Part shown: positions 913 to 63,053 of the stretch, one piece after another
How positions within the stretch are numbered: position 1 is the first letter of the stretch
Layout of the letters: each line of letters begins with the position of its first letter
Assembly: GCA_001768615.1 (NCBI GenBank)
Contig: MELE01000027.1
Coordinates: 52,778 to 116,777, forward strand
DNA: 64,000 nucleotides
Reading direction: 5' to 3'
Origin: Acidobacteria bacterium RIFCSPLOWO2_12_FULL_67_14b
Lineage (GTDB): Bacteria; Acidobacteriota; Vicinamibacteria; Vicinamibacterales; UBA2999
Position numbers and translations under genes: made by a program
Notes under the pieces: model-generated
Told to the model about the DNA's origin: nothing
Databases searched by the model: none
What the model saw: only the letters and a program-made list of their open reading frames with translations

Positions 913-994
913 GGATGATTGGGGACAGGCCCCCATTTTCACACTTCTATCGAAGTTCGGGACTGTGAAAATGGGGGCCTGTCCCCAATCATCC
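913..994. repeat. perfect 31-bp inverted repeat (arms 913..943 and 964..994, 20-nt loop)
   Basis: GGATGATTGGGGACAGGCCCCCATTTTCACA and its exact reverse complement were read directly. It lies between the stop of 994..3429 and the start of 109..897. Confidence 0.9.
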
Positions 995-3510: not shown

Positions 3511-3549
3511 GTTCCTCACGAGGGTTCCTCACGGAGGTTCCTCACGAAG
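3511..3549. repeat. three direct 13-nt words GTTCCTCACGRRG
   Basis: gttcctcacgagg / gttcctcacggag / gttcctcacgaag were read directly. The last unit overlaps the stop codon of 3542..4795. The word contains the CACGAAG core of the ACCACGAAG family. Confidence 0.85.
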
Positions 3550-4795
3550 GTTCGGTTGCGGCGAGCCCGGCCGCACGTCCGGTGGCCCATGCCCAGGCGA
3601 AGTTGTGGCCGCCGATGGGACCAAACGCGTCGAGGATCTCGCCGCACAGGTACAGGCCGGGGCAGCGCTTGCTCTCGAGCGTGCGCTGGTTGATGGCGTC
3701 CAGCGCCACACCGCCGCCGGTGACTTCGGCCTTCTTGTAGCCCTCGTCGCCGATAACCGGGAGCTCGTACGACGTCAGCTTGTCGATCAACGCCGTGCGC
3801 TCGGATCGGCGCAGGCTGCTCGTCCGGCGATCGGCCGGCACGCCGGCCTCGGTCATGAGCTGTTCGGCGAGGCGCGCCGGGACGTGCCTGCCGAGCAGCG
3901 ACGCGACGCTCGCGGATGGCGCGTCGAACCGGGCCGTCCACTCGCGAACGCCCAGCGGGGACCACTGGGCGCGAATTGTCCGGCTGGCCGCCTTCGCCGA
4001 GGCTTCGGCGCCCGAGAAGCCGGACGCCACATCAGGGTGCCGTGTCACCACGTGGGAAATGTCGAGCACGCTCGGACCGCTGTAACCGCGATGCGTGAAC
4101 AGGAACCCGCCGGAGGTCTCGACGGCCCGCCTTCCGCTCTTCGCGCGCAGGCGCGCGTTCAGGGAGACGCCGGCGAGCGCGGTGTGTCCAGCGGCCGGAT
4201 TGCCCAGCAACGGCGTGAGCGCCGGGTAGGTTTCGACCATCCGATGGCCGAACGTTTCCGCGATGCGGAGGCCGGTGCCGTCGCTGCCGGTGGCCGGCAC
4301 CGACAAGCCACCCGTGGCGAGGATCACCCGCATGGCGGTGATCTCGCCTGCTGGCGTCCGCAGCGTGAAGCCCGGCGCGGATGCCACGATGCCGGTGACG
4401 AGCGTGTCGAACTGGAGCCGGACGCCGCGGTCGCGCGCAAGGGCGACAAGCCCGTCGCGCACGTCGCGCGCGCGGTTCGATTGCGGAAAGAGCTTGCCGG
4501 ACGCTTCCTCCAGCGCGAGGGGAATGCCGAGGTCGCGCTCGAAAAACGCGCGCTGCTCGTGAAGGGGCCAGGACTTGAGCATGCCGCGCATCAGGTGCGC
4601 CGGCGAATCGGTGACGAAGCGTTCGGGGGCCGGCACGGAGGGGAGCACGTTGCAGCGGCCGCCGCCGCTGATGAGGATCTTGCGGCCGCCGTCAGCCGTG
4701 CGCTCGATCAGGAGGACGTCGGCGCCCTGCGACGCGGCGAAGATGGCCGCGACGAGGCCGGCCGCCCCTGCGCCGACCACGGCCACAGATGTCAC
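3542..4795 (-). CDS. NAD(P)/FAD-dependent oxidoreductase, HI0933/YhiN-like
   Basis: N-terminal VVGAGAAG Rossmann motif and the ISGGGRCN motif typical of the family. GTG start. Confidence 0.85.
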   Translation of the reverse strand: MTSVAVVGAGAAGLVAAIFAASQGADVLLIERTADGGRKILISGGGRCNVLPSVPAPERFVTDSPAHLMRGMLKSWPLHEQRAFFERDLGIPLALEEASGKLFPQSNRARDVRDGLVALARDRGVRLQFDTLVTGIVASAPGFTLRTPAGEITAMRVILATGGLSVPATGSDGTGLRIAETFGHRMVETYPALTPLLGNPAAGHTALAGVSLNARLRAKSGRRAVETSGGFLFTHRGYSGPSVLDISHVVTRHPDVASGFSGAEASAKAASRTIRAQWSPLGVREWTARFDAPSASVASLLGRHVPARLAEQLMTEAGVPADRRTSSLRRSERTALIDKLTSYELPVIGDEGYKKAEVTGGGVALDAINQRTLESKRCPGLYLCGEILDAFGPIGGHNFAWAWATGRAAGLAATEPS

Positions 4796-7699: not shown

Positions 7700-8188
7700 G
7701 TGACAGACCAACCATTGGTGGCGGTGATCATGGGCTCCACGTCCGACTGGGACACGATGTCTCACGCGGCCGAGGTGCTCGAGCGTTTCGGCGTGCCGTT
7801 CGAGAAGGAAGTCGTCTCGGCGCATCGCACGCCGGTGTGGATGGCCGAGTTCGCCCAGAGCGCGGAAGCGCGCGGCATCCAGGTGATCATCGCCGGCGCC
7901 GGCGGCGCCGCGCACCTGCCGGGCATGGTCGCCTCGCACACCGTGCTCCCGGTCTTCGGCGTTCCCGTCAACAGCGCGTCGTTGCAGGGACTCGATTCCC
8001 TGCTCTCCATCGTCCAGATGCCGGCCGGGGTGCCGGTGGGCACCCTCGCCATCGGCAAGGGCGGCGCCACCAACGCGGCGCTGCTGGCCGTGGCCGTCCT
8101 GGCGACGACGCGGCCCGAGCTTCGTGAGCGGCTTCGCCAGTTTCGCGCCGAGCAGACGGCGAAGGTCCGCCAGGACACCCTTCCGTGA
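7700..8188 (+). CDS. purE: N5-carboxyaminoimidazole ribonucleotide mutase
   Basis: The C-terminal part of ORF 6662..8188 reads [14 protein letters not shown]...[14 protein letters not shown]...GVPV. GTG start at 7700 (alternative ATG at 7730). Confidence 0.9.
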
Positions 8189-9318
8189 ACCGCCCCGTGT
8201 TGCCCGGCGCCACCATTGGCGTGCTTGGCAGCGGACAGCTGGGTCGCATGCTCGCGCTCGAGGCCAAGCGCATGGGCTACCGCGTCCATACGCTCTCGCC
8301 CGGCGTCGATACGCCCACCGGACAGGTGGCGGACCTCGAGGTCAGCGCCGAGTACGACGATCTCGAGGCCATCCGCGCGTTCGCGCGCGGGGTCGACGTG
8401 GTCACCTTCGAATTCGAGAACGTGCTGATCGACGCGGCGGACGCCGCGGCCGAGATCGTGCCGGTGCGTCCCAGCGGATCGGCCCTGCACATCACACAGC
8501 AGCGCGCGCGCGAGAAGGCCTTCCTGGCCGATCGCGGCTATCCGGTGGCGCCGTTTGCCAAGGCGCAGTCGCTCGACGAGCTCGCGGTCGGCCTCGGCGC
8601 CGTCGGCCTTCCCGCCATCGTCAAGACCTCGGTGTTCGGCTACGACGGCAAGGGCCAGCACCGCATCAACAGCATCGAAGAGGGGGAGCGCGTCTGGGGG
8701 CTCATCGGCCACCAGGAGGCGATCATCGAGCGGCTGGTCGAATTCACCATGGAGATCTCGGTTGTGGCCGCGCGCGGGCTCGACGGCGAGTTCGCGCACT
8801 ACGGCGTGATTGAAAACGTCCATCACAATCACATCCTGGATCTGTCGGTGTGTCCGGCGCGGCTGCCGGCGGGCATTGGCCATGAGGCCGTGCACCTGAC
8901 GCACCGCGTGCTCGAGGACCTCGGCTACGTCGGCGTGTTGTGCGTGGAGTTCTTCGTGACGGGCGACGGCCGGCTGCTGATCAACGAGATTGCCCCGCGC
9001 CCCCATAACTCGGGGCACTTCACGATCGACGCGTGCGTGACGTCGCAATTCGAGCAGCAGGTGCGCGCGGTGTGCGGGCTCTCGCTCGGCGACCCGGCGC
9101 AGATCAGGCCCGCCGCGATGGTGAACCTGCTGGGCGATCTGTGGATCAACGGGGAGCCGGACTGGGCGGCGGCGATGGCGGTGCCGGACGTGAAGCTGCA
9201 CTTGTACGGCAAGGGCGACCCGCTCGTGGGCCGCAAGATGGGCCACCTGACGGCGCTGGGCGAGTCGGTGGAAGAAGCCGCCGCGAAGGCCCTCGCTGCC
9301 AGGGATGTCCTTTGTTGA
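8185..9318 (+). CDS. purK: N5-carboxyaminoimidazole ribonucleotide synthase (ATP-grasp)
   Basis: 377 aa, 4-nt overlap with purE, with [12 protein letters not shown] and ATP-grasp core motifs. Confidence 0.9.
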
Positions 9319-9320: not shown

Positions 9321-9367
9321 AAAGAGACCACGAAGACCACGAATTCGTGATCTTCGTGGTTTCTCTT
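9321..9367. repeat. ACCACGAAG-word hairpin element, copy 1
   Basis: AAAGAGACCACGAAGACCACGAA|TTCGTGATCTTCGTGGTTTCTCTT, centred on GAATTC and preceded by TTGATCAAAGAG. Confidence 0.9.
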
Positions 9368-10856: not shown

Positions 10857-10912
10857 CCCAGCTTCCAGCTTCCAGCACCAAAGCACCAAAGCACCCCAGC
10901 ACCAAAGCACTC
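10857..10912. repeat. direct word array (CAGCTTC x2, AGCACCAA/AGCACCCC x4)
   Basis: Read directly. The reverse complement GGTGCTTTGGTGC resembles the GGTGCTTGGGTGC words at 48750. Confidence 0.85.
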
Positions 10913-11844: not shown

Positions 11845-11846
11845 TA

Positions 11847-11922
11847 CAGCCGTCAGCCGTCAGCCTTCGGCCGTCAGCCTTCGAGGGTCAGCTCTGGGCC
11901 GACGGCTGGAGGCTGACGGCAG
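11847..11922. repeat. CGTCAGCC-word hairpin element
   Basis: CGTCAGCC-type words x4 are followed by GCCGACGGCTGGAGGCTGACGG (reverse-complement words). It lies between convergent genes. Confidence 0.85.
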
Positions 11923-11957
11923 TGGCGCGATTCTCGGCAACTCAACTGAATTGTGGG

Positions 11958-14438
11958 CTAGCGTGGTGTGAGGGTCAGGGTTGACTCGGTGGGCCCGGGC
12001 AAGAACGGCGACGGCTCGCCGTTGAGCCACAGGCGGTACTGATCGTTGTAGTGCGGCGACAGGGGATGGCCGCTCTGGCCCGTCGGCACGTGCAGGATCC
12101 CATCCTCCTCGTGGCCCGGCGACACGGCCATGCGCTCCGATGGCCCGGCGCGTGGCGAGTGCGCGCGCGGGGTGTAGACGTCGCCCGGCAGCGGGTCCCC
12201 CGGCATGTTGAGGTAGCGGCCGAAGAACGGGATGCCCGACGCGAGCGGATGCCAGACCTGCGCGCGATTGAACTCGCCCCACGTGCGATCCGATAGCGCC
12301 GGTCCCGACTTGCGCAACTCGGCGATGGCTTCGTCGACCGCAGAGAGGATCAGTTCATCCCACGTCCTGAATTGCGGATCGAGCAGATGCGCGGGCCGCT
12401 CGGTCAGCAGCTGCCAGACCGGGCTCTCGCCGCGGAGCGATCGCGTGTAGTCGAACGACGGATCGATGCGGCGAGCGGGCGAGGTCAGCGTGGTCATCAC
12501 GCGAACCACGAGCGCGGTGCGGAACTGGCGCACCAGGCGATAGGCGACCGACCCCGGCGACGCGCGGCCGGTCCACGTCGTTTCGACGAGGCGGCGGAAT
12601 TCTTCTCGTTGGCGGGACTGAAGTCCCGCCTCTACGGCGCCCGGCTGGCGCAGCGCGTCGAGCACCAGCGTGCGCCAGCGATCGAGAAAGAGCGCGGTGT
12701 CTTCGAGCTGCACGTGCAGCATGTCCTGCGGCGTGGCCTTTACGATCGCCATCAGCCGATCGCGGATCAGGCGGGCGCGGATGCCGTCGGCGTATCCGCC
12801 CTCGCCGATCGTCGCGAGCAGGGCGCCGTCGACGACGGGGGCGTTGGCCGTCCAGATGCGGCCGCCGGCCGGATCGGCGATGCGCGGAAATTCCGCGGCG
12901 GGCAGGTAGCCGTCCCACCGGTGCGTGCCGTCGGCCCACGACGCCGGCGTCAGGCCGTCGTGTCCGACGCGCCGCGGGATGGCGCCGCCGATCGTCCACG
13001 CAATGCGGCCCGTGGTGTCGCCCATCGTGACGTTCTGATTGGGGATGCCGAGGCCGGCGACCGCGATCATCAACTCGTCGACGGTCCGGGCCCGTTCCGG
13101 CCTGGTGATGTCCGACGAGAGCGCGGCGGCGTCGTGCGCGATCCATCGCTGCGCGTACTCGCGGCCCTTCGCATCCTTCCAGACGATGGGGCCCCAGATG
13201 GTCCAGCGGACCTGGATGGTCTTCAAGTCCGCGCCCTTGGCCGCGAGGGTTTCGCGGTAGGTCTCGAACGGCTTCGCGCCGTCCGGCGTCAGGTACTGAG
13301 TCGCGTCGCGGGCGTCGGGATCGATCATCACGAGATCGCTCCAATCGCCGCCGCTGTTGGTGAAGCCCCACGCGACGTGGCCGTTGCTGCCGACGACCAT
13401 GCTCGGCAGGCCAGGGAGCGTCACGCCGTTGATGTGCTCGGTGGCCGCGGGCCCCGCGGGATCGGGAAACGCGAACGACGCGCGATACCAGATGGTCGGC
13501 ACGTTGATGGCCAGGTGCATGTCGTTGGCCACGAGCGCCGTTCCAGACGCCGAGTGCGCGGCATCGACGGCCCAGTTGTTGCTGCCGGCGATCAAATGCT
13601 CATCACGGAAACACTGAAACACCGAAGCAACGAACAAATCCTTTCCCAAAGGCTCGTTGCACGCGGCTTTGAGGAGAGGTTGTTCGGTGTTTCTGTGGTT
13701 CTGTGTTTCTGTGTGATGCATTTTTCGCAAATCGAATACGTCCGGCCCTGGTGTCGGCGGCCTGACGATCGCGGAGCCCACCACCGGCGTGTCCCACTCG
13801 GAGCCGGCCGTTGCCAGGAAGCGGAACATCGGCTCGGGCAGGCTGTCGCGCATGGCGCCCATCGTCTGCTCGAAGAGCCCCTGGCGCCCCTGCAGCGTGT
13901 TGAACATCGCGAGCACGGTGAGGATGGAATCTTCCGGCTTCCACGGCTCGGGCACGGCGCGCAGCACCAGGTACTCGAATGGCGCCGCGCCGAGCGCCGC
14001 GAGGCCGGTGTTGACGCCGGCGGCATAGGCCTCGAGCAGGCGCCGGTACGCCGGCTCGGTCTGTTCGAAGGCGCGATGCGCCACGTTACGGAAGCGATGC
14101 ACGCGCACGGCCTCGTCTGCTGCCAGCGCGCGGGGACCCACAAGACCCGACAACTCGCCGGCGGGCTGCCGCCGTTGCAGATCCATCTGGAAAAAACGGT
14201 CTTGCGCGTGGAGAAATCCCAACGCGCGGGCGACGTCCTCACGGGACTGCCCCGTGATGGTCGGCACACCGAGCGAGTCGCGATCCACTTTGACCGTGGC
14301 CGAAAGGCCAGGGACCCGGGAGGTGCCGTCGACCATCGGCAGGCTGGCGCGCACCTGCGATCGGGCGTAGACGCCGGCCATTACGATGAGGGCGCCGGCC
14401 ACGGCCAGCAGGACGATCACGTATCTCAGGATCCGCAC
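11958..14438 (-). CDS. penicillin acylase family protein (S45 Ntn hydrolase; AHL/penicillin/cephalosporin acylase-like)
   Basis: 826 aa. It carries the beta-subunit N-terminal nucleophile motif GSNNWAVDAAHSASGTALVANDMHL and an N-terminal TM/signal segment. GTG start. Confidence 0.9.
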   Translation of the reverse strand: MRILRYVIVLLAVAGALIVMAGVYARSQVRASLPMVDGTSRVPGLSATVKVDRDSLGVPTITGQSREDVARALGFLHAQDRFFQMDLQRRQPAGELSGLVGPRALAADEAVRVHRFRNVAHRAFEQTEPAYRRLLEAYAAGVNTGLAALGAAPFEYLVLRAVPEPWKPEDSILTVLAMFNTLQGRQGLFEQTMGAMRDSLPEPMFRFLATAGSEWDTPVVGSAIVRPPTPGPDVFDLRKMHHTETQNHRNTEQPLLKAACNEPLGKDLFVASVFQCFRDEHLIAGSNNWAVDAAHSASGTALVANDMHLAINVPTIWYRASFAFPDPAGPAATEHINGVTLPGLPSMVVGSNGHVAWGFTNSGGDWSDLVMIDPDARDATQYLTPDGAKPFETYRETLAAKGADLKTIQVRWTIWGPIVWKDAKGREYAQRWIAHDAAALSSDITRPERARTVDELMIAVAGLGIPNQNVTMGDTTGRIAWTIGGAIPRRVGHDGLTPASWADGTHRWDGYLPAAEFPRIADPAGGRIWTANAPVVDGALLATIGEGGYADGIRARLIRDRLMAIVKATPQDMLHVQLEDTALFLDRWRTLVLDALRQPGAVEAGLQSRQREEFRRLVETTWTGRASPGSVAYRLVRQFRTALVVRVMTTLTSPARRIDPSFDYTRSLRGESPVWQLLTERPAHLLDPQFRTWDELILSAVDEAIAELRKSGPALSDRTWGEFNRAQVWHPLASGIPFFGRYLNMPGDPLPGDVYTPRAHSPRAGPSERMAVSPGHEEDGILHVPTGQSGHPLSPHYNDQYRLWLNGEPSPFLPGPTESTLTLTPR
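13601..13718. repeat. CACAGAAAC-word hairpin element embedded in frame in the acylase CDS
   Basis: CATCACGGAAACACTGAAACACCGAAG...CGGTGTTTCTGTGGTTCTGTGTTTCTGTGTGATG. It is translated as MHHTETQNHRNTEQ...FVASVFQCFRDEH, just upstream of the SNNW processing site. A sibling copy lies at 26055..26163. Confidence 0.85.
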
Positions 14439-15620: not shown

Positions 15621-15693
15621 GCACCGTGGCACCCACCCCTTAGGCACCTTTGGCACACTAGGCACCCTTAGGCACGTTAGTATTTAGCGTGCC
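15621..15693. repeat. GGCACC-word array ending in a small hairpin over the next start codon
   Basis: gtggcaccc / ttaggcacc / tttggcacac / taggcaccc / ttaggcacg, then ttagtatttag, then cgtgcc. The 3' arm contains the GTG start of 15689. Confidence 0.8.
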
Positions 15694-16918: not shown

Positions 16919-16943
16919 CAAGGCAGAAGGCAGAAGAAGAGAG
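16918..16943. repeat. GGCAGAAGG purine-word array
   Basis: GCAAGGCAGAAGGCAGAAGAAGAGAG lies immediately upstream of the ATG at 16950, purine strand in sense. Confidence 0.85.
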
Positions 16944-17303: not shown

Positions 17304-17367
17304 GCAGCTATACTGGCTGCCTGAACCGCGCTACCTGAACTACCTGAACTTGGAGGCTCTTTTCCCC

Positions 17368-20235
17368 ATGCTGCGCACCCTGACGGCGTTCGTCCTCAGC
17401 CTTGCGATTGCTTCCTCTGCCGCGGCGCAGTCGACGGCGATCAACGGCACCCTCGAAGGCACCGTGAAAGACGAGCAGGGCGCCCTGCTGCCCGGCGTCA
17501 CGGTGGCCGTGGCCAACATCGACACCGGCGAGCAGCGCATCGTCGTGACCAACGAGAACGGCCTGTACCGCGCGCCGCTGCTGTCGCTCGGCACCTACCG
17601 CGTGTCGGCCGAGCTCCAAGGCTTCAAGAAGTTCGAGCAGACGGGCATCTCGCTGCGCGCGGGCCAGACGGCCGTGATCAACGTCACGCTGAGCGTCGGC
17701 GCGATCGTGGAAACGGTGACGGTGACCGCGGACTCGCCGCTGGTGGACCTGGCCAAGATCGAGCAGGGCCGCACGCTGAGTGAAGCCGAGATCAAGACGC
17801 TGCCGCTGACTTCGCGCAACCCGTACAACTTTGCGCTGCTGCAGCCGGGCGTGGTCGGCTTCGAGACCAACGAGTTCGGCGTGCCCCGCATCACCGCCAA
17901 CGGCGCGCTGCTGCGCGTGAACTACCAGGTCGACGGCAGCAACAACACCCAGAAGGACCGCGCGGGCCTGCGCCAGATGCCGATGTCGGAAGTGATGATC
18001 CGCGAAGTGAAGGTCGTCACCAGCGGCTACGCGCCCGAGTTCGGCCAGACCATGGGCCTGGTCTACAACGCGATCACGCCGTCGGGCACGAACACGTTCA
18101 AAGGGCAGGGCAGCTACCGTATGCAGCGGCAGTCGATGGTGGGCAAACCGTTCTTCGTGTCCGCCTCCGCGGCGAAGCCGCCGACCGACGTCAACCTCTA
18201 CACCTTCGATCTCGGCGGCCCCATCGTCAGGGACAAGACGCATTTCTTCGGCGGCTACGAGCACACCGAGCGCGACCTGTCGGGCCTGAGCGTGATCACG
18301 ATCTCGGCGGCGAACAAGGCGCTGCTCGGCCTGACCGAGCCGGCCTACATGCCGCGCGGCCTCAATACCGAGTTCGCGATCGGCAAGCTGGATCACCAGC
18401 TGAACCAGTCGAACCGCCTGTCGTTCCGCTACATGTTTTTCGACAACTTCATCACCGCCAACGTGGGCGGCGGCATCAGCTCCACGCAGCGCGCCACGGA
18501 CTTCGCGGACCGGCAGCATTCCACCGGCGCGCAGCTGATCTCCACCATCGGCGCGGGCGCGCTCAACGAGCTGCGCGTCCAGTACGCCACCCGGGCCCAG
18601 AGCCGTACGCCCAACGCGCTGGCCGGGACGGGACCGGCCATCAACGTCACCGGAACGGCCAACTTCGGTGGACCCGTTGCGGGCGTGGCGGATTCCGGCT
18701 TCGGCTTTACGCAGAACGTGATGCAGGTCAACAACAACACGACGCTGCTGCGCGGCAACCACGGGTTCAAGGCCGGATTCGACCTGCAGTTCGTGTCGGA
18801 CACGCGCACGGCGGCGCCGGCGCAGCTCTACACGTTCCCCAACGCGGCCGCCTACCTGGCGGCGCGCAATGGCACGAACCGGATGGGCTACACCAGCTTC
18901 ACCCAGTACTTCGGCCTGCCGAATCTCGAGTACGACAGCCGGCAGTACGGGTTCTTCGTGCAGGACGACTGGCGGGTGACGTCGGACTTCAAAGTACTTT
19001 ACGGCATCCGCTACGACCTCTACGGGCCGCCCGACGGCAATCCGAGTGCGCCGGTGGCGACGTCGCGTGAGTTCCCGACCTCGAACAACAACATTGCCCC
19101 CCGCGTCGGCGCGGTGTGGACGCTCGGCGAATCCCGCCGGTCGGTGGTGCGCGTCAACACGGGCATCATGTACGACCAGACGCTCAACGCGGTTTACGAG
19201 CAGGCGTTGCAGAACGACGGCACCAACGCCCGCGCGTCGGCGTCGTTTACGCCCACCCAGGTCGGTGCGCCGGCCTTCCCGGCGGTCCTGAGCACGGGCG
19301 CCGGCGCCCAGCCCAACCTGGCCTGGACGGTCGACGCCGATTTCAAGATCGCGCGCTCGTGGCAGAGCAACCTGCAGTTCGAGCATGCGCTGAGCGACCG
19401 CTACTCGGTCAGCGTCGGGGCGTCGTTCGTGAAGGGCTATAACCTGCCGGTCGTGACCAACATCAACCTGATCAACCCGACGGGCGCGTTGCCGGACGGC
19501 CGGCCGATCTTCGCCACCGCGGTCAACGCCGGCACCCGCGTCGATCCGCGCTACAACGTCATCAACGCCGTGCAGTCGCCCGGCGAATCGACTTACAAGA
19601 ACATGACGCTGCAGCTGACGCGCCGCAGCTCGAAGGGCATCGGCTTCGACTTCGCCTACACGCTGGGCAAGAGCGAGGACAACGCGCCGATCACCGGCGC
19701 GCTCTCGGTACAGGGCGACGCGGGCCGCTCCGACATGACGAATCTCGACCGCGACCTCGGCCCGAACATCCTCGACCAGCGGCACACCTTCGTCGGCAGC
19801 ATCGTCGCCACCCCGCAGTTCGAGCGCGGCGGCGCCGCCGGCGCGATCCTGAACAACAACGTGTTCGGCATCGCCATTCAGCTGGCCAGCGGCATCCCGG
19901 TGAACCTGCGCAGCAACCGCGAGTTGAACAACGACGGCACGGCCAGCGACCGCCCGAACGGCGTGGCCCGCAACTCGCTGCAGCTGCCGTCGCGCAAGAA
20001 CGTCGACTTCCGCTACTCGCGCCGCTTCCGCATCCAGGGCAACATGGCGGCGGAAGTGATCGGCGAGGTCAAGAACATCTTCAACACCGTGCAGGTCAAC
20101 GGCGTCACCGCGACGGTGGCGACCGACACGCAGGGCGTGCCGATCAACGCGCTGCCGACGTCGGGCAAGGACCTCGTGCCGACGGGCGGCTACGAGCAGC
20201 GGCAGTTCCAGCTCGGGTTTAAATTCACTTTCTGA
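17368..20235 (+). CDS. TonB-dependent receptor with N-terminal carboxypeptidase-regulatory-like domain
   Basis: Signal peptide MLRTLTAFVLSLAIASSAAAQ, then GTVKDEQGALLPGVTVAV..TGE.R.VVTNENGLYR (CarboxypepD_reg), with C-terminal beta-barrel end ...QFQLGFKFTF. GGAGG lies 11 nt upstream of the ATG. The ORF track starts at TTG 17350. Confidence 0.85.
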   Translation: MLRTLTAFVLSLAIASSAAAQSTAINGTLEGTVKDEQGALLPGVTVAVANIDTGEQRIVVTNENGLYRAPLLSLGTYRVSAELQGFKKFEQTGISLRAGQTAVINVTLSVGAIVETVTVTADSPLVDLAKIEQGRTLSEAEIKTLPLTSRNPYNFALLQPGVVGFETNEFGVPRITANGALLRVNYQVDGSNNTQKDRAGLRQMPMSEVMIREVKVVTSGYAPEFGQTMGLVYNAITPSGTNTFKGQGSYRMQRQSMVGKPFFVSASAAKPPTDVNLYTFDLGGPIVRDKTHFFGGYEHTERDLSGLSVITISAANKALLGLTEPAYMPRGLNTEFAIGKLDHQLNQSNRLSFRYMFFDNFITANVGGGISSTQRATDFADRQHSTGAQLISTIGAGALNELRVQYATRAQSRTPNALAGTGPAINVTGTANFGGPVAGVADSGFGFTQNVMQVNNNTTLLRGNHGFKAGFDLQFVSDTRTAAPAQLYTFPNAAAYLAARNGTNRMGYTSFTQYFGLPNLEYDSRQYGFFVQDDWRVTSDFKVLYGIRYDLYGPPDGNPSAPVATSREFPTSNNNIAPRVGAVWTLGESRRSVVRVNTGIMYDQTLNAVYEQALQNDGTNARASASFTPTQVGAPAFPAVLSTGAGAQPNLAWTVDADFKIARSWQSNLQFEHALSDRYSVSVGASFVKGYNLPVVTNINLINPTGALPDGRPIFATAVNAGTRVDPRYNVINAVQSPGESTYKNMTLQLTRRSSKGIGFDFAYTLGKSEDNAPITGALSVQGDAGRSDMTNLDRDLGPNILDQRHTFVGSIVATPQFERGGAAGAILNNNVFGIAIQLASGIPVNLRSNRELNNDGTASDRPNGVARNSLQLPSRKNVDFRYSRRFRIQGNMAAEVIGEVKNIFNTVQVNGVTATVATDTQGVPINALPTSGKDLVPTGGYEQRQFQLGFKFTF

Positions 20236-20398
20236 CACATTGACGATTTACGACCGACCGATTTGGCGATTGTTTGGCTATTGCCGACTTGCCCATCGAG
20301 CGATTCGATTGGGCGATCGGCAATGGCCCGATTGATTCGCCAAATCGCCAATCACTCAATCGTCAACAATCGCTGATTCAGTCATTCGACGATCGACA
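20236..20398. repeat. 163-nt CGATT-word imperfect hairpin filling the whole intergenic gap
   Basis: GATTTGGCGA at about 20260 pairs with TCGCCAAATC at about 20338. Nested pairs are TTGCCGA/TCGGCAA and GCCCATCG/CGATTGGGC. The region is relatively AT-rich. Confidence 0.75.
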
Positions 20399-37635: not shown

Positions 37636-37660
37636 GCCGGGACATCATAGACGATGTCCC

Positions 37661-38499: not shown

Positions 38500-38539
38500 C
38501 TCGCAGAAAATAGACGAGACCGGGGCCCGGAGGGTTGCC

Positions 38540-40489: not shown

Positions 40490-40492
40490 TTC

Positions 40493-44187: not shown

Positions 44188-44262
44188 GGGTGCCTGGGGT
44201 GCGTACGGTGACTAGGGTGCCTACGGGTTGGTGCCGGGTGCGGGTGCCGGTGCCGGTGCCGG
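44188..44262. repeat. GGGTGC/GGTGCCG word array
   Basis: gggtgcctggggtgcgtacggtgactagggtgcctacgggttggtgccgggtgcgggtgccggtgccggtgccggg lies in a divergent intergenic region. Confidence 0.8.
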
Positions 44263-44295
44263 GCGCCATGGTGCTAGGATGGCGGGGTCCTGACC

Positions 44296-48733: not shown

Positions 48734-48749
48734 CTCTCTATTCTATAAG

Positions 48750-48879
48750 GGTGCTTGGGTGCTTGGGTGCGTGGGTGCTTATGTGCGCACCTACGCACCT
48801 ACGCACCTACGCACCTACGCACCTACGCACCTACGCACCTATGCACCCACGCACCCACGCACCCACGCACCCACGCACC
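48750..48879. repeat. about 16 consecutive 8-nt units: GGTGCTTG-type x4, CTACGCAC x6 (perfect), CTATGCAC, CCACGCAC x4
   Basis: Read directly. The left units are the reverse complement of the right units. G3N5 x4 motifs occur on the + strand (48749..48775) and on the - strand (48846..48872). Confidence 0.9.
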
Positions 48880-48887
48880 TTGTTCTT

Positions 48888-51502: not shown

Positions 51503-51512
51503 GGTTTCAGAC

Positions 51513-51535
51513 GGGCTCCGGGCTCCGGGCTCCGA
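51513..51535. repeat. GGGCTCC x3 word array in the hisF-hisA gap
   Basis: gggctccgggctccgggctccga. On the sense (-) strand this reads GGAGCCC x3, that is, three SD-like GGAG motifs. Confidence 0.85.
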
Positions 51536-51538
51536 GCT

Positions 51539-54528: not shown

Positions 54529-55784
54529 CGTTTATGCCTTCTGCCTTCAGCCTTCTGCCTTGCTTCAATCGAGCGCGCGTGCGCTTCGAGGCCCTCGGCG
54601 CGGGCCAGGGTCGTGACGGTCTTCGCGATCCGCCCCAGGCCGGCCTTCGTCAGTCGCTGCACGGACACGAGCTTCACGAAGTCGGCGGCGTTCAGCCCAC
54701 CGCGATGACGGGCCGCGCCCGCCGTCGGCAACACATGGTTCGAGCCGATGGCGTAGTCGCCGGCGACCTGCGCCGTCCAGCCGCCCACGAACACGGCACC
54801 AGCATTCCATACGAGCCGGGCGAGCGCTTCGGTTCCCACCACCAGGTGCTCGGAGGCCGCCTGGTTCGCCAGCGCGATGGCCTCGGCCATGCTCCGGCAA
54901 ACGATCACGCCGCCATGACGCGCGAGCGCCTGGCGGGCGGGACCGGTGCCGGGCATCTGCCGTTCAACTTCCGCGGCCACGCGCTCCGCCAACCGCCTGT
55001 TGGAGGTGATGAAGACCGCCCGCGCGTCGGGATCGTGCTCGGCTTGGGCGATGAGATCCGCGGCGATCCACGCGGCCGGGCCGGTCGCCGAGACAATCAG
55101 GATCTCGGTGGGTCCGGCGTAGAAGTCGATGCCGCAGTCGGCGGATACCAGCGACTTGGCGGCCGCCACCCATCGGTTGCCGGGGCCGACGATCTTGTCG
55201 ACCTGGGGAACGGTGCGCGTGCCATAGGCCAGCGCGGCAACGGCGTGGGCGCCGCCCATGCGAAACAGCCGATCGACGCCGGCCTCGAGGGCGGCGGCGA
55301 ACACCGCCGCATCCGGCCGTGGACAGGCCACGACCACTTCGCGCACGCCGGCCGCCCGTGCCGGTACCGCCGTCATCAGCAAAGACGAGGGCAGGGGGTA
55401 GCGCCCGGCCGGCACGTAGCATCCGACACGGCCGAGGGGAACGACGCGCTGTTCCACCACGATGCCCGGCGCCACCTTCAGCCGCCAGCCCGCGGGCACC
55501 TGCTTGCGGGCGACCTTGCGGATGTGGCCCACCGCGCGCTTGATGGCGGCGCGCACGGCGGGCGGCGCCTGTCGCGCCATCGCCGCCCACTGCCGCCGCG
55601 GCACTTCGATGGCGCCGCCGACGCCATCGAGCTCCTTCACGAAACGGGCGAGCGCCGCGTCGCCGCCGCGCCGGACCCGGGCGACGATCGCGGCCGCCCG
55701 CGCCTCGGTCGCGCGATCGCGGATGCGTGTGGCCGACAGCAGGTCGGCAACGGCGCGGCGATTGGTTGAAGTCACAATCTTCAT
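54525..55784 (-). CDS. hisD: histidinol dehydrogenase
   Basis: 419 aa with HisD motifs ([24 protein letters not shown]). ATGA overlap with hisC. Confidence 0.9.
54534..54563. repeat. GGCAGAAGG/GGCTGAAGG word array inside the 3' end of hisD
   Basis: atgccttctgccttcagccttctgccttgc. The sense strand GCAAGGCAGAAGGCTGAAGGCAGAAGGCAT encodes the hisD tail [10 protein letters not shown] and lies just upstream of the hisC ATG. Confidence 0.85.
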
Positions 55785-55788: not shown

Positions 55789-55871
55789 GATCAAAGGAAA
55801 CCACGAAGAACACGAAGATCACCACGAAGATCACGAAGTCTATTGATCAAAGAGTTCTTCGTGGTCTCTGT
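55789..55871. repeat. ACCACGAAG-word element, copy 4, inside the his operon (hisG-hisD gap)
   Basis: GATCAAAGGAAACCACGAAGAACACGAAGATCACCACGAAGATCACGAAG, loop tctattgatcaaagag, then TTCTTCGTGGTCTCTGTTT. The arms are unequal (4 words versus 1). Confidence 0.9.
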
Positions 55872-57125: not shown

Positions 57126-57152
57126 CTCAGCCTTCAGCCTTCAGCCGTCGGC
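57126..57152. repeat. GGCTGAAGG word array immediately upstream of hisI
   Basis: The sense strand reads GCCGACGGCTGAAGGCTGAAGGCTGAGAGCTGAT-ATG. Confidence 0.85.
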
Positions 57153-59271: not shown

Positions 59272-60861
59272 TTATTGGATCGGCTTTGCGGGCGGCAGGC
59301 CCTTGCGCGGAAGCTTCTCAGGCGTGTTGGCGGCATACCAGGCAAACACGGCCGCGACGGCGCCCTGCTGGATCACGTCTTCGCGCTGCACGTGATCGAA
59401 CGTGTCCATATTCGAGTGATGCGTCCGCGAGTTGTACTCGAGGCGCTCCTGGATGAACTGGAATCCCGGCAGCCCGGCGTTCTCGAACGATCCGTGGTCG
59501 GTCTGGGTCACGGCCCGCGGGCTCACATTCCTGAACCCGAGGTCCTTCACCGACTGGCCCCACTCTTCGAACAGCTTGATCGCGCCCAGGTTGCCCTGGC
59601 CCCAGACGCCGAGGATGCGCCCGGTGCCGTTGTCGAGATTGAAGTAGGCCTGCACCGACGGGTGCGCCGGTTTGGGCGTGTTGCTCGCGAAGTCGTAGTA
59701 ATGCTGCTGCACGTAGGCGCGCGATCCGAGCAGGCCCTGTTCTTCGGCGGCCCAGAGCGCCAGCCGAATCGTGCGGCGCGGCTTCAGGCCGAGCGCCTGG
59801 ATCGCGCGCACGGCTTCGATCATGGCGCTGCTGCCCGTCGTGTTGTCGGTGGCGCCGGTCGCATACGGATAGGTATCGAAGTGCGCGCCCATGATCACGA
59901 CTTCGCTTGCCAGGTCGGTGCCCGGGATCTCCGCGATGATGTTGAAGGCGTTGCCCGCCGGATCGGTTTCGGGATGGAACTTCGTCTGGATGTTGACCTC
60001 CATCCGGACCGGCTGCCCGCGGTCGATCAGCCGGACAATGCGGTTGTAGTGCTCGACGGCGAGGGTGGCCGAGGGCACCTGCTGCGGCATCTTGGGGTCG
60101 CGGCTGCCGCCGTTGCCGGGAAAAATCGTGCCGCCGTCCGCGCGCTGGGTCTGCCACGACAGGTCGCTGCCGCCCGCGGACAGATCGCCATCGGGCCCGC
60201 GATCGAGCACGGCGGCCGCCCCTTCGGCGGCGAGGAATCGCTGCACCGCGCCGGCGAACGCTTGCGCACCTGACGCACCTGACGCACCTGATGCACCCGC
60301 CGGAATCGGCGTCTTCATGGCCTCGTCCCACTCCGCGTCGCCCATGCGGAGGATGATTCGCCCGTCCAGCATGCGAACCGGACGTGCGGCCTGGAGGATC
60401 ACGATCTTGCCCTGCAGCTGACCCTTGTACTTCGCCAGGTCCGCCTCGCTGGCCGCCCGCACGTGCACGACGTCGGCGAGCACCGGCCCGTTGGTCGGGG
60501 GCGAGTACCACCGAGGCTGGCCGACGAGCGACGCGGTCTGCGGCGTCACCATGTGGACCGAGAAGCGTTCGATCGTCCAGCCCTGGCCGAACGGGAAGCG
60601 CTCGGTGTGGACGTTCTTGAGGCCCCACTCGGTGAACTTCTTCATCGCCCACTCGGCGCCCTGCGTGTAGCCGGGCGTGCCCGTGGCACGCGGCCCGAAG
60701 ACCTCCGACAGCCACCAGTGCGTCTCCATGGCCTGCGACCGCGCGATCGCCTCGGCGCGGATGCGGCCGATGGTGGCCAGGTCGAGGCCGGCCGGCGCCT
60801 GGGCCAGGCCGCTGGAGGAGGCGAGCAGAACGATGGAGAGCAGAGCAGCCGCGCGTGTCAT
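59272..60861 (-). CDS. M28 family aminopeptidase with PA domain, secreted
   Basis: Signal peptide MTRAAALLSIVLLASSSGLAQA and M28 motifs (AHFDTYP, ATDNTTG, WAAEEQGLLGS, DHGSF). Confidence 0.85.
   Translation of the reverse strand: MTRAAALLSIVLLASSSGLAQAPAGLDLATIGRIRAEAIARSQAMETHWWLSEVFGPRATGTPGYTQGAEWAMKKFTEWGLKNVHTERFPFGQGWTIERFSVHMVTPQTASLVGQPRWYSPPTNGPVLADVVHVRAASEADLAKYKGQLQGKIVILQAARPVRMLDGRIILRMGDAEWDEAMKTPIPAGASGASGASGAQAFAGAVQRFLAAEGAAAVLDRGPDGDLSAGGSDLSWQTQRADGGTIFPGNGGSRDPKMPQQVPSATLAVEHYNRIVRLIDRGQPVRMEVNIQTKFHPETDPAGNAFNIIAEIPGTDLASEVVIMGAHFDTYPYATGATDNTTGSSAMIEAVRAIQALGLKPRRTIRLALWAAEEQGLLGSRAYVQQHYYDFASNTPKPAHPSVQAYFNLDNGTGRILGVWGQGNLGAIKLFEEWGQSVKDLGFRNVSPRAVTQTDHGSFENAGLPGFQFIQERLEYNSRTHHSNMDTFDHVQREDVIQQGAVAAVFAWYAANTPEKLPRKGLPPAKPIQ
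60262..60303. repeat. in-CDS 9-nt word array (sense GGTGCATCA GGTGCGTCA GGTGCGTCA GGTGCGCAA) encoding GASGASGASGAQ
   Basis: Read directly. It matches 21053..21094 in an unrelated gene at 34 of 42 positions. Confidence 0.85.
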
Positions 60862-60877
60862 GGACGAGTCCTCAACG

Positions 60878-60965
60878 AAAAGAAACCACGAAGATCACGA
60901 AGCACCTCGAAGAACACGAAGTAATCTCTTCCGAACGCATTCTTCGTGGCCTTCGTGGTTTCGTT
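60878..60965. repeat. ACCACGAAG-word hairpin element, copy 5
   Basis: AAAAGAAACCACGAAGATCACGAAGCACCTCGAAGAACACGAAG, loop, then TCTTCGTGGCCTTCGTGGTTTCGTT. Confidence 0.9.
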
Positions 60966-60968
60966 AGA

Positions 60969-63053
60969 TCACTGTTGCGCCGTGGTGGTCACGCCGGGTG
61001 CGCGCTTGTACTTGTCGAACCAGTAGCGCAGGTACAACTGCGTGCGGATGAAGTTCGACGGCGTCGTCGTCGTGCCGTGCCATTCGTTGTTCATCCGCAG
61101 CATCGCGGTCGGCACCTTGCGCAGCTTCAACGCGCTGTAGAACTGCTCGGTTTGCGGCATCGGCGTCCGCAGGTCCTGCACGCCGGTCATCAGCATGGTC
61201 GGTGTCTTGACGTTGCCGACGTAGCTCAACGGCGAGCGGCGGAAGTGCTCGCTGGGATCCTCCCACGGCAGCTTCGCAAAATTGTTGTACCAGCCCGCGC
61301 TGTCGGTGGTGCCGACGAAGCTCACCCAGTCGATCACGGGGCAGTTGGCCGACGCGGCCGCGAAGCGATCCGTCTTGCCGACGATCCACGCCGTCAGCAC
61401 GCCGCCGCCGCTGCAACCGGTGACGAACATGTTGCGTTCGTCGATAAAGCCCTTCTTCAGCAGCTCGTCGACGCTGCCCATCAGGTCGTCGTAGTCCTTG
61501 CTCGGATAGGCGTTGTTGATCTGGTTGCCGAACGCGCTGCCATAGCCCGTGCTGCCGCGCGGGTTCGAGTAGAGCACGACGTAGCCGTTGGCGGCGTGCT
61601 CCTGCCAGCCGTAGTTGAAGCCGACGCCGTACATGCTGTGCGGCCCGCCGTGGATGTGCAGCTGCATCGGGTACTTCTTCGTGGCATCGAACCCCGGGGG
61701 CGTGATGTACCAACCCTGGATCTTCAGGCCGTCCGCCGACGTGTAGGTGATCTCCTTGACGTCGCCGAGCTTCTTGCCCTTGAGGATGTCGTCGTTGACC
61801 CACGTCAGCTGCTTGATCTGCTGCGGTGAGGCGATGTCGTAGGTCACGATGTCCGGCGGCGCCTGGAACGACGTGGACACGCCGACGGCCTTGCCGGTCT
61901 TGCTGATGCTCGTCGTCGTGAGCATGTGCGTGCCCTTCGTCACCGGCTGAACGGCATCGCCACGCGTGCCGGCCAGCGGCAGCACGTAGAGGTTCTGGAC
62001 GCCGGTGTCCTGCGCGGTGAAGTACAGGCCCGTGCCGTCCGCCTTCCACTGCAGGCCCTGTGGCGAGCGGTCCCAGTCGCCCGAGACCAGGCGCGGATTG
62101 CTGCCGTCGACGTTCATCACGTACACCTTGCTGTCGGTCCAGGTGTTGCGCGAGGCATCCATCCCCGTATAGGCCACGAGCTTGCCGTCGGGCGAGACCT
62201 TCGGTCCGTTGTCGGGACCCTTGCGGCGCGTCAGCTGCGCGATTGCGCCGGTCTCGACGGTGACGGCATAGATTTCCGATTCCCGGAACTCGTAGTCGGC
62301 GTCGGGAATGCGCAGCGAGGTGAAGAGGATCTGCTTGCCGTCGGGCGTGAACTCGACGCCGTTGTGATCCCAGTCGCCACTAGTCAGCTGCCGCGGCGTG
62401 CCGCCGGTGGCGGGCACGACGAACAGATGCCTGAACCCGTCGTCGTTGAAGCCCTGGCGGTCCTGGCGGTAATCGAGCCGTTCGACGATGCGGGGGGATT
62501 CGACCCACTTGGCGCCTTCAGGTCTGTCGGGCATCTTGATCGACCAGACGTTCTTCTTCTCGACCTGCATGGCGAAGGCGAGCGACTGGCCGTCGGGCGA
62601 CCACGTCACGTTGGCGGGCGACTTGTCGATGTGCGTCACCGGCGAGATGGCGCCTTCGGCGTCCATGTAGCGCACGAAGATCTGGGAGCCCTTCGGATCG
62701 CCCTGCGCGGTGTAGGCGATGCGATCGCCCGAGGGCGACCACCGCGCGCTGCTGCCGCGCACGAGGAAGCGGTTCCTGCTGCCGTCGGCGTTCATGATCC
62801 ACAGAGACGACTCACGCTTGTCGTTGACCTTGTCGATCCACCCGCGTGTGTAGATGATCTGCGCCCCGTCGGGCGACAGCTGGGGATCGGACACGGTCTC
62901 GAATTCCCAGTAGAGGTCGAGGGTGAGCCGGTCGTTGGCGACATTATTCTGAGTAACATTATTCTGAGTAACATTATTCTGAGTAATAGTGTTCTGGGCC
63001 GCGAGCACGACGGGCAACGACGCAAGAGCGAACGCGACGAGCAAACGGCGCAT
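60969..63053 (-). CDS. S9 family peptidase with TolB-like beta-propeller, secreted
   Basis: ATG at 63053 (MRRLLVAFALASLPVVLAAQ) with GGGAGG upstream. Nucleophile motif GCSGGG. The ORF-track extension to 63464 overlaps vapC and is rejected. Confidence 0.85.
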   Translation of the reverse strand: MRRLLVAFALASLPVVLAAQNTITQNNVTQNNVTQNNVANDRLTLDLYWEFETVSDPQLSPDGAQIIYTRGWIDKVNDKRESSLWIMNADGSRNRFLVRGSSARWSPSGDRIAYTAQGDPKGSQIFVRYMDAEGAISPVTHIDKSPANVTWSPDGQSLAFAMQVEKKNVWSIKMPDRPEGAKWVESPRIVERLDYRQDRQGFNDDGFRHLFVVPATGGTPRQLTSGDWDHNGVEFTPDGKQILFTSLRIPDADYEFRESEIYAVTVETGAIAQLTRRKGPDNGPKVSPDGKLVAYTGMDASRNTWTDSKVYVMNVDGSNPRLVSGDWDRSPQGLQWKADGTGLYFTAQDTGVQNLYVLPLAGTRGDAVQPVTKGTHMLTTTSISKTGKAVGVSTSFQAPPDIVTYDIASPQQIKQLTWVNDDILKGKKLGDVKEITYTSADGLKIQGWYITPPGFDATKKYPMQLHIHGGPHSMYGVGFNYGWQEHAANGYVVLYSNPRGSTGYGSAFGNQINNAYPSKDYDDLMGSVDELLKKGFIDERNMFVTGCSGGGVLTAWIVGKTDRFAAASANCPVIDWVSFVGTTDSAGWYNNFAKLPWEDPSEHFRRSPLSYVGNVKTPTMLMTGVQDLRTPMPQTEQFYSALKLRKVPTAMLRMNNEWHGTTTTPSNFIRTQLYLRYWFDKYKRAPGVTTTAQQ
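62941..62985. repeat. three perfect tandem copies of the AT-rich 15-mer ACATTATTCTGAGTA inside the S9 peptidase CDS
   Basis: Read directly. It encodes (NVTQN)x3 just after the predicted signal-peptide cleavage site. Only 4 of the 15 bases are G or C, in a GC-rich gene. Confidence 0.9.

Follow-up and report, generated by a model that had tools for sequence, protein, structure and literature searches.

In a 64,000-nt stretch of the soil acidobacterium RIFCSPLOWO2_12_FULL_67_14b (contig MELE01000027.1, positions 52,778 to 116,777; hereafter the window), about half of the gaps between genes hold arrays or very stable hairpins built from tandem words of 7 to 9 nt. Judged from their sequences, the window loci are an architecture class with several word families rather than one family. 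Our preferred reading, which we judge about as likely as not, is that they are non-coding tandem-word hairpin repeats, akin to short tandemly repeated repetitive (STRR) sequences and to repetitive extragenic palindromic (REP) and BOX elements, that disperse from locus to locus, grow or shrink by slippage, and have a terminator-like or RNA 3'-end stem-loop role.

The gene map, an approximate one based on open reading frame (ORF) choice by GC content at third codon positions, leaves 38 gaps of at least 30 nt (4,493 nt in total, 7% of the window). At least three phased exact copies of a 6-mer are present in 9 of these gaps, compared with 0.0 in mononucleotide shuffles and 0.16 in length-matched coding segments, and a tandem pair with an inverted copy is present in 13 (shuffles, 0.58; coding segments, 2.95). 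One or the other strict test is passed by 17/38 gaps; a looser reading, in which Tandem Repeats Finder (TRF) and direct reading bring in 3511, 16920, 17322 and 23186, plus the inverted repeat at 913-994, gives about 22/38. An earlier note on this DNA, made from the letters alone, had placed arrays in most gaps, which is roughly right, and had proposed comparison with shuffled sequence, in which arrays are indeed far rarer (0 to 0.6 gaps). Its count of about 27 loci was somewhat generous.

The recurring word families align well beyond chance, as that note had supposed. The sequence CACGAAGNNCACGAAG (at most one mismatch) has 14 matches in the window against 0.03 expected, and GGCAGAAGGCAGAA (at most two mismatches) has 11 against 0.33. 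All ten ends of the five window CACGAAG hairpins carry an invariant ACCACGAAG after AAAGAA, and the ends align on AAAGAAACCACGAAG. Non-stem modules had been described as shared between copies; this holds for the terminal modules, which alone are common to copies, and not for the loops, which are unrelated. The proposed CAGAT and GGGCTC families are weak. Ten hairpins that were tested fold at -26 to -73 kcal/mol (z -4.2 to -10.6). Looked for as a Chi-like or DNA uptake sequence (DUS)-like distribution, single words show no enrichment in the rest of the window.

Each large element is made up of a word array, then a loop, which sometimes includes a small GC core hairpin (e.g., GCGTTGTGAAGCGC in 40382-40490), and finally the complementary array. 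Stems are 20 to 40 bp, bearing out the long stems noticed earlier, and loops are 13 to 50 nt. Word number can indeed differ between arms, with 4 vs 12 at 48749-48880 and 4 vs 1 at 55797-55868. The long arm of the former (48786-48880) is made of blocks of identical units, 12 copies against 4, a mark of recent tandem duplication confined to that arm. Most window hairpins lie directly after a stop codon, and 36230-36336 occupies an entire convergent gap, flush with both stop codons (36231, 36337). Copies are also present inside the his operon (hisG/hisD and hisA/hisF gaps) and in frame inside an ORF (13601-13716), in agreement with the earlier observation. Arrays with a single arm occur 5' of genes or in divergent gaps (10858, 15637, 44188, 51512, and 57127), and those with GCACC cores or GGAG may be a functionally different subset. 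The members are as follows, in window coordinates, with no strand assigned to any of them.

3511..3553: direct array of GTTCCTCACGRRG x3.3, overlapping the stop codon of ORF 3542..4786(-); TRF score 72.
9321..9364: CACGAAG-family hairpin, a near-perfect palindrome centered on GAATTC, between purK (8185..9318) and the next + gene; TRF; -28 kcal/mol, z -6.6.
10858..10910: one-armed direct arrays, CCAGCTT x2.7 and then AGCACCAA x4.6 (GCACC core); TRF, direct reading.
11846..11923: CAGCCGT/CAGCCTT-word hairpin between convergent genes; TRF; -56.8 kcal/mol, z -6.9.
13601..13716: CACNGAAA-word hairpin, in frame within the penicillin-amidase-like ORF 11958..14438(-); TRF; -65 kcal/mol, z -9.1.
15637..15680: one-armed GGCACC(YTTA) array, x4-5; TRF, direct reading.
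16920..16936: short AAGGCAG x2.4 array of the GGCAGAA family; TRF, family match.
17322..17350: CTACCTGAA x2-3, immediately 5' of the outer-membrane-barrel gene 17350..20235; TRF, direct reading.
20233..20406: long imperfect CGATTG-type hairpin, with an orthologue at L125:17643-17803 and a paralogue at L125:9860-10143; inverted repeat, alignment.
26059..26160: CACAGAAA-word hairpin between convergent DUF1501 and Ysc84 genes; TRF; -52 kcal/mol, z -9.9.
28504..28528: weak direct array of CGCAGATGA x2.8; TRF.
36230..36336: CACGAAG-family hairpin, 4+4 words, with a perfect 21-nt duplication in the 3' arm; TRF; -60.7 kcal/mol, z -10.6.
37661..37736: CACGAAG-family hairpin, 2 vs 3 words, between a DUF4097 gene and a major facilitator superfamily (MFS) transporter gene; TRF, fold.
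38556..38572: GATCTCA x2.4 array; TRF.
38797..38854: degenerate CAATCTG-type array; TRF.
40382..40490: GGCAGAA-word hairpin around the small GC core hairpin, the core being conserved in L126; TRF, fold.
44188..44267: divergent gap with direct arrays of GGTGC(C), whose GCACC core is kept at this gap in L121, L122, L125, and L128; TRF.
48749..48880: unequal-armed hairpin, GGGTGCTT x4 vs CGCACCTA/CGCACCCA x11.9; TRF score 155; -73 kcal/mol, z -8.2.
51512..51538: CGGGCTC x3.9 within the 36-nt hisA/hisF gap; TRF, direct reading.
54535..54561: TGCCTTC x3.9 (GGCAGAA family), encoding the hisD C-terminal tail, immediately 5' of hisC; TRF.
55797..55868: CACGAAG-family hairpin, 4 vs 1 words, in the hisG/hisD gap within the his operon; TRF, fold.
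57127..57146: TCAGCCT x2.9, immediately 5' of the hisI start codon; TRF.
60879..60965: CACGAAG-family hairpin, 4 vs 2 words; TRF, fold.

The arm orientation described in the earlier note, with the A-rich arm 5', is seen in the CACGAAG, GGCAGAA, and CACAGAAA families and fails at 11846, 20233, and 48749. The CAATCTG word of 38797-38854 also occurs in L069, and its rotated unit CTGCAAT in L076. The hairpin inside the ORF 11958..14438(-), which is penicillin-amidase/Ntn-hydrolase precursor-like, is 116 nt long, is translated as HHTETQNHRNTEQ...FVASVFQCFRDEH, and lies in the spacer peptide, stopping some 7 residues short of the catalytic Ser of SNNW. By analogy with the maturation of penicillin G acylase, this spacer is presumably removed autocatalytically, and the site may therefore tolerate a hairpin insertion.

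To follow the elements through related genomes, we compared the window with about 90 loci (L numbers), made up of 9 syntenic loci of 13 to 21 kb (L120-L122, L124-L128) and 80 metagenome loci around the MFS gene (36337..37635), which has hundreds of orthologues with 56% to 99% identity in soil and sediment metagenomes and in Acidobacteriota metagenome-assembled genomes. One locus, L120, is 99.7% identical to the window over 20.7 kb, with 57 substitutions, and no array has changed. The arrays are therefore not contingency loci, and hypermutable loci of that type were rejected; the hypervariable copy number typical of long simple sequence repeats (SSRs) was likewise not seen between the window and L120. 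The comparison of orthologous gaps that had been proposed earlier thus reveals presence, absence, and word changes among relatives, but no copy-number change in this near-identical strain. Two short tracts, 36598-36700 and 38418-38519, contain 38 of the 57 substitutions (19 each), and there is a 50-nt indel at 38366-38415; this clustering suggests recombination patches and not clock-like divergence.

Among relatives with 70% to 88% protein identity, the gap 5' of the MFS gene holds one of several words or is empty. The word is ACCACGAAG in the window, GGGATCC in L121, L129, L132, L126, and L128, CGGGAGT in L122, CAGATCT in L124, L136-L138, and L168, CACNGAGGA in L125 and L133, GTGAAAR in L155, CAGTTAC in L163, and GCTCAGA in L172. 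In L149, L153, L158, L159, and L161 the gap is empty, and the stop codon abuts a promoter-like GCTATGATG. The convergent MFS/ABC2 gap contains CACGAAG in the window and in L122, a remnant of it in L128, GATTTGG in L121, CACGGAT in L124, L136, L162, and L168, and a CGATTG element in L149/L150, and it is only 0 to 15 nt long in L129-L132, L137, L144, L146, L153, and L158. Between close lineages some elements are inherited, since the window and L126 both have the GGCAGAA hairpin with one and the same core loop, and the window and L125 both have the CGATTG hairpin.

Loss, arm turnover, and dispersal have all left traces in this series. In L136, L138, and L137, whose MFS genes are 95% to 96% identical, the same position holds a 225-nt hairpin, the remnant TATCC|GTGGAT, and nothing, respectively; the hairpin was deleted between direct repeats of ATCC that stand at its foot. 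The arms of L168 are CACGGAT x3 (5') and ATCTGTG x3 (3'), each uniform, so that one G.T pair is present three times, and those of L122 are CCAGATG x3 and CTGGCTA x3. Each arm therefore turns over by itself, and such separate homogenization points to slippage. Two CGATTG elements at different loci of L125 are about 80% identical over a 50-nt non-word stretch (aligned by eye), and non-word sequence common to paralogous copies points to dispersal, as do the terminal modules common to the five window CACGAAG hairpins, the swapped or missing families in orthologous gaps, and the occurrence of CACGAAG in many phyla. The earlier suggestion of propagation or in situ slippage is thus apt in that both leave traces, and falls short in that neither is sufficient alone. 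In L136 (4290-4520), L162, and L124, but not in L168, the loop of the CACGGAT hairpin encloses other palindromes, long and unrelated (e.g., GACGTCAGCATCGAAGTACCGCGGAAATGAGTC...GACTCATTTTCGCGGTACTTCGTGCTGACG); hairpin loops appear to be insertion hot spots.

Several other features of these loci touch the same gaps. The motif GCTATGATG(T/G)GCGCG, or its TATCAT/TATTCT variants, is conserved immediately 5' of the MFS start down to about 70% identity (window ~37640-37660 on the minus strand, L121, L126, L128-L131, L136, L148, and others), with the word hairpins always just upstream; it looks like a -10 promoter element or leader. In L125, DDE_Tnp_1/DDE_5 and IS630-like DDE_3 transposase genes (14-2619) stand in place of the esterase/PQQ genes beside the conserved block, and the ABC2 operon is missing in L125, L126, and L128. 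GCACC-core arrays are found in the divergent gap of five lineages (44188-44267; L121 3532-3664; L122 3557-3713; L125 2620-2728; L128 4413-4559), where they begin after a conserved CTAGCACC and keep the core while the spacers vary. They lie upstream of a conserved ORF of 124 to 125 amino acids with no Pfam match and are followed by the conserved block TTGTAACCCC(A/G)TGTAAC...GGGTTAGGATG; the gap may be a regulatory region. Read in the minus-strand sense, the arrays 5' of the hisF, hisC, and hisI starts are GGAGCCC x3, GAAGGCA x3, and GAAGGCT x3, respectively, i.e., repeated Shine-Dalgarno-like motifs.

The CACGAAG family extends far beyond Acidobacteriota. When one genome per species was searched for CACGAAGNNCACGAAG-N10-40-CTTCGTG, at least 119 stretches matched, where about 8 are expected by chance according to our own arithmetic; they come from more than 10 phyla, with GC contents of 37% to 72%, and some of their contigs reach 3 Mb. 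The 80 titles among the matches listed include about 22 Acidobacteriota, about 21 Desulfobacterota or "delta", 8 Chloroflexota, 5 Verrucomicrobiota, 5 Methylococcales, 4 Planctomycetota, 4 other Gammaproteobacteria, 3 Binatia, and 2 Alphaproteobacteria, plus Nitrospirota, Schekmanbacteria, and Sumerlaeota; isolates among the matches listed are Desulfobacter vibrioformis DSM 8776, Herpetosiphon, and Bowmanella. The 118 elements among these matches have a conserved terminus, TT[AC]ACCACGAAG, that the search pattern did not demand. Before the outermost word, A stands at -2 in 94/118 and C at -1 in 98/118, with TT at -5/-4, whereas internal spacers are AC in only 14 of 253; CACGAAG itself is exact and the spacers are diverse. 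The 3' end mirrors this terminus as GGT[G/T]AA, giving the overall form TT[AC]ACCACGAAG-(NN-CACGAAG)n - loop - (CTTCGTG-NN)n-CTTCGTGGT[GT]AA. Spacers of the two arms are complementary in 13/24 cases, compared with 4.8 expected.

Control patterns were run in IMG/VR only. There the CACGAAG pattern occurs in 44 stretches, the reversed arm order in 1, and a same-composition control word in 9, of which about 2 are real hairpins; arm order is thus biased 44:1, and the family is at least 5-fold commoner than the control word. A single phage-like contig, which encodes an integrase and a phage metallopeptidase, has at least 4 full-pattern hairpins, possibly 6 (about 6 word-pair clusters). Phage-like contigs with integrase, phage metallopeptidase, and Laminin_G_3 tail-fiber-like proteins (L212/L214, IMGVR_UViG_3300032046_000115; L215; L248) carry the hairpin at many gene boundaries. 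Among the matches listed (at least 119 loci), 59 contexts are tandem, 19 convergent, and 6 divergent, and the contexts thus favor 3' ends. The window words GGCAGAA, CACAGAA, and GGCACC are absent from the cross-phylum CACGAAG loci, and only CGCAAAG recurs, in 5 of them.

Searches for an agent or a carrier were negative. Pfam scans of 40 of the 54 called window ORFs revealed no transposase or integrase, and neither did the Pfam annotation of L120, which covers most of the remaining ORFs (a few short ORFs were unchecked), consistent with the earlier note. Likewise, no Y1 or HUH nuclease and no REP-associated tyrosine transposase (RAYT) is among the window ORFs scanned by Pfam. All-against-all clustering of ORFs from the 119 listed loci gave only response regulators, ABC transporters, and similar genes as recurrent neighbors, and the 20 tested genes that lie between two hairpins encode housekeeping or unknown phage proteins, with no mobility gene among them. 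Direct repeats of 3 to 8 nt at the boundaries of the 118 CACGAAG elements do not exceed those of shuffled pairs, i.e., there is no sign of target-site duplication. A BLAST search of one hairpin against PLSDB had no match. Text searches of the literature with element 16-mers also had none, and bare 7-mers returned primer noise only. The CACGAAG family was not found described in the literature, and it is a lead whose interest could grow should a conserved trans-acting factor turn out to lie behind the family.

Four further repeats in the window are not built as word hairpins.

913..994: inverted repeat GGATGATTGGGGACAGGCCCCCATTTTCACA, perfect over 31 nt, around a 20-nt loop, 100% complementary, no strand assigned; -68 kcal/mol, z -11.3.
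21056..21090, + strand: non-member, 9-nt coding repeat, (Gly-Ala-Ser)n linker; translation.
60265..60297, - strand: non-member, 9-nt coding repeat, (Gly-Ala-Ser)n; translation.
62941..62986, - strand: coding 15-mer ACATTATTCTGAGTA x3.1, 100% identical, QNNVT repeats; TRF, translation.

The inverted repeat at 913-994 contains GGGGACAGGCCCCC and has no word construction. Because each arm holds its own small palindrome, it looks like a second palindromic class resembling REPINs (REP doublets forming hairpins); related inverted repeats with an GGGGACAG(G/T)CCCC core are present in distant relatives, upstream of MFS in L160 and downstream of MFS in L166/L167. The in-gene GGTGC copies reported at 21059 and 60262 are the (Gly-Ala-Ser)n coding repeats and do not belong to the family; the same 9-nt unit (CAGGTGC core) occurs in two unrelated genes, for a PIG-L-domain protein and an M28 peptidase. 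Similarly, the 15-mer taken for an element at 62941 is a coding repeat. It is AT rich in a 67% GC genome, lies directly after the signal peptide of an S9 peptidase (ORF 60969..63044(-)), and looks like a very recent duplication by coding slippage, with no hairpin element. The genes of the window, whose own GC content is 67%, are typical of Acidobacteriota, with CarboxypepD_reg and outer-membrane barrel proteins, S9 and M16 peptidases, DUF1501/DUF1800, and the his operon. Scans of the window for tRNA and tmRNA found no tRNA and nothing relevant, and Rfam had no match at gathering score, with only spurious miRNA-hairpin matches at E<=1.

The comparisons show that the elements at gene boundaries come and go as species diverge, so that orthologous gaps contain different families or nothing. 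Each arm expands, contracts, and is homogenized alone, with replication slippage as the likely cause, and entire hairpins are deleted between short direct repeats. Since members of a family resemble each other outside the word even at separate loci, new copies derive from old ones; this copying would leave no target-site duplication and proceed without DDE-type transposition, and a single-strand or hairpin-based pathway or recombination could serve. Once transcribed, stems of 20 to 40 bp would act as terminator-like, insulating, or 3'-end-protecting RNA structures, a role that would explain the elements beside stop codons and the avoidance of divergent gaps. This placement, together with the lack of an excess of canonical terminators, suggests a role at the RNA level. 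Many copies are probably close to neutral.

Several observations weigh against this reading. An exact 7-mer with fixed termini and arm order in more than 10 phyla is unexplained by slippage or by generic hairpin function. The cross-phylum CACGAAG copies have no T-run after the stem and end in GGT[G/T]AA, and their folding energy shows no dependence on gene direction through G.U asymmetry (29 vs 30), where an RNA-only constraint might give one. The one-armed arrays 5' of genes or in divergent gaps, with a GCACC core kept across lineages, possibly have a promoter, untranslated region (UTR), or translation control role, and since orthologous gaps can be empty, the hairpins are dispensable at those sites. 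It is possible, and we put it forward tentatively, that CACGAAG is a single sequence-specific family kept by an unrecognized, widely conserved trans-acting factor, a pan-bacterial REP-like system of which the other window words are lineage-specific analogues. Its hosts would be Acidobacteriota, Desulfobacterota, Binatia, Methylococcales, other Gamma- and Alphaproteobacteria, Chloroflexota, Verrucomicrobiota, Planctomycetota, and Nitrospirota, as well as phages, and candidates for the factor would be an RNA- or DNA-binding or processing protein, or else a nuclease or recombinase that has been domesticated. We regard as unlikely a REPIN/RAYT-like system in which the word families are mobilized in trans by a single-copy sequence-specific HUH/Y1 nuclease or other recombinase encoded outside the window, with the words as recognition or cleavage sites and repeated cutting and rejoining at word boundaries setting copy number. 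The presence of several families in one genome, the exact core beside diverse internal spacers, the terminus kept in 118 elements from many phyla, the 44:1 arm order and at least 5-fold excess over the control word, the palindromes nested in loops, and the REP-like genomic position, also inside operons, would all fit such a system, as would the missing target-site duplication, which is also the case for HUH-mobilized elements. However, neither Y1, HUH, nor any other transposase is among the window ORFs scanned, none is among the 20 genes flanked by two hairpins or enriched near the 119 listed loci, the arms are non-palindromic with no GTAG head and unrelated loops, and slippage suffices for arm-wise homogenization; known REP families are also genus or species specific.

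That the arrays are a mutational by-product, arising de novo in each gap from high rates of short tandem duplication and template-switch inverted duplication in non-coding DNA, with words that recur by mutational or compositional convergence and have no function, seems to us improbable. Many different words across the roughly 90 orthologous loci, the commonness of identical-unit blocks and unequal arms, the perfect 9- and 15-nt tandem repeats in coding DNA, and the few true word hairpins that even the control word yields in IMG/VR are consistent with it, and heptamer excess elsewhere has been attributed to polymerase slippage (PMC4679880, PMC4692102). Yet such a process cannot account for five CACGAAG hairpins that share the AAAGAAACC terminal module within 64 kb, for paralogues with common non-word sequence, or for one terminus in more than 10 phyla and the 44:1 arm order; the arrays are stable at 99.7% strain identity, and units in which the core is conserved while the spacer varies imply constraint on the word. 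The same periods of 7 to 9 nt with conserved core and variable spacer would suit protein-binding arrays, in which the words are operators or centromere-like iterons (cf. ribbon-helix-helix heptad arrays and MetJ boxes) or sites for nucleoid or RNA-binding proteins, and so would the direct and inverted arrangements of one word, the one-armed GCACC arrays kept after CTAGCACC in the divergent gap of five lineages, the GGAG-containing arrays just 5' of start codons (51512, 57127, and 54535), and the conservation of CACGAAG across phyla. This explanation is nevertheless quite improbable, with most hairpin-type copies at 3' ends and not at promoters, orthologous sites that swap words or are empty, unlike conserved operators, no enrichment of single words elsewhere in the window, and dozens of words that would need dozens of factors. 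Least credible of all is that these are unrelated, ordinary bidirectional intrinsic terminators, repetitive by chance. Elements do lie just after stop codons, the window CACGAAG, GGCAGAA, and CACAGAAA families have A-rich 5' flanks and T-rich 3' tails, and in the GGCAGAA element a T-rich arm comes after a small GC core hairpin; the earlier comparison with bidirectional terminators fits some loci only. It does not extend to the class, since families align far beyond chance, which already contradicts unrelatedness, stems and loops are outside the canonical sizes, three families have the T-rich arm first, many convergent orthologous gaps have no hairpin, and some elements are found 5' of genes, within the his operon, or within an ORF.

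The repeat class is present at about half of the gene boundaries of an abundant uncultured soil lineage, and one comparative series captures its gain, arm-wise expansion, and loss. REP, BOX, and STRR sequences shape operon expression and mRNA stability and serve as typing markers, while their origin is understood for REP/RAYT only. If a conserved factor does keep CACGAAG, this would be a very widespread piece of unknown bacterial nucleic-acid biology, and the family could serve as a sequence probe for finding the factor. In Acidobacteriota and many other environmental phyla, tandem-word hairpins will also confuse assembly and the prediction of terminators and small RNAs.

Compared with known systems, the elements resemble intrinsic terminators in that hairpins lie just after stops and three window families have A-rich upstream and T-rich downstream tracts. 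Where a terminator would have its U-tract, the window CACGAAG copies have GGTTTCTTCT-like tails that are T rich but interrupted, and the cross-phylum copies have no T-run. The elements differ from terminators in sequence families, in copies inside an operon and an ORF, in orthologous sites that can be empty, and in size, with stems of 20 to 40 bp and loops of 13 to 50 nt, where terminators have stems of about 5 to 14 bp and loops of 3 to 8 nt. A scan of 26-46 kb for canonical terminators and promoters gave 15 vs 10.9 +/- 3.4 expected, i.e., no enrichment, and returned no word hairpin as such. Sigma-54 promoters, NtrC boxes, DnaA boxes, parS, dif, and attC were dropped, since spacing or position relative to their consensus sequences is unsuitable. 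A clustered regularly interspaced short palindromic repeat (CRISPR) array has 23- to 50-nt repeats with unique spacers of similar length and was rejected, as units here are 7 to 15 nt and contiguous. The MITE (miniature inverted-repeat transposable element) label of the earlier note was also rejected, since the 118 elements have no target-site duplication and their terminal inverted repeats are trivially those of a hairpin.

Rickettsia palindromic elements are palindromic repeats able to sit in frame inside protein genes, as 13601-13716 does within the amidase spacer, but here there is one such case and no sequence relation. BOX elements of Streptococcus pneumoniae are dispersed, modular, and intergenic, with an internal module tandemly repeated a variable number of times, and fold into a stable stem-loop. 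The present elements share all of these features; unlike them, BOX has modules of 45 to 59 nt in a fixed A-B(n)-C order and no 7- to 9-nt words mirrored in two arms. The window arrays have the head-to-tail 5- to 11-nt unit, intergenic position, and above-chance frequency of long SSRs and STRR sequences. Intergenic tandem heptamers, including a general excess of heptamers, are an acknowledged class that is little understood (PMC4679880, PMC4692102). Among such repeats, the GGGAATC heptamers of Xanthomonas and Nostoc lie about 28 nt after the upstream ORF, at a position conserved between species while length varies (PMC4692102), and the TAACTGA repeats of Beggiatoaceae lie immediately upstream of start codons, with one inverted case only (PMC4679880). 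Like these, the arrays here are 7-nt-unit long SSRs concentrated in intergenic DNA, and the position of TAACTGA resembles that of 51512, 54535, and 57127; however, those systems have essentially one direct word per genome, whereas here there are many words and the hairpin arrangement is usual for large elements.

In heterocystous cyanobacteria, STRR sequences are 7-bp repeats that form hairpins between genes, for which a role in transcript stability or translational coupling has been proposed (PMC2670836). The elements described here are likewise tandem non-coding repeats of about 7 bp that can be inverted and form hairpins between genes (hupS-hupL in the case of STRR), with several words per genome. 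They differ in phylum and in words, in periods of 7, 8, and 9 nt that often combine a conserved core with a variable spacer, and in comparative data that show turnover, deletion footprints, and arm-wise homogenization. To our knowledge, STRR families shared across phyla have not been reported, whereas CACGAAG is cross-phylum. With REPs and REPINs, which are linked to RAYTs in Enterobacteria and Pseudomonas, the elements share an extragenic position at gene 3' ends and inside operons, multiple copies, inverted pairs with a variable spacer, several families, and no target-site duplication. The REP unit is an imperfect palindrome of 20 to 40 nt whose head is GT[AG]G, and it goes with a RAYT gene that has REPs on its flanks; known REP families are genus or species specific and not pan-phylum. 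Here, by contrast, each arm repeats a non-palindromic word in tandem and has no such head, and no RAYT was found in the window ORFs scanned or in the sampled loci, so that the REP label of the earlier note does not fit. The closest precedents are thus STRR sequences for architecture and REP/REPIN for genomic behavior.

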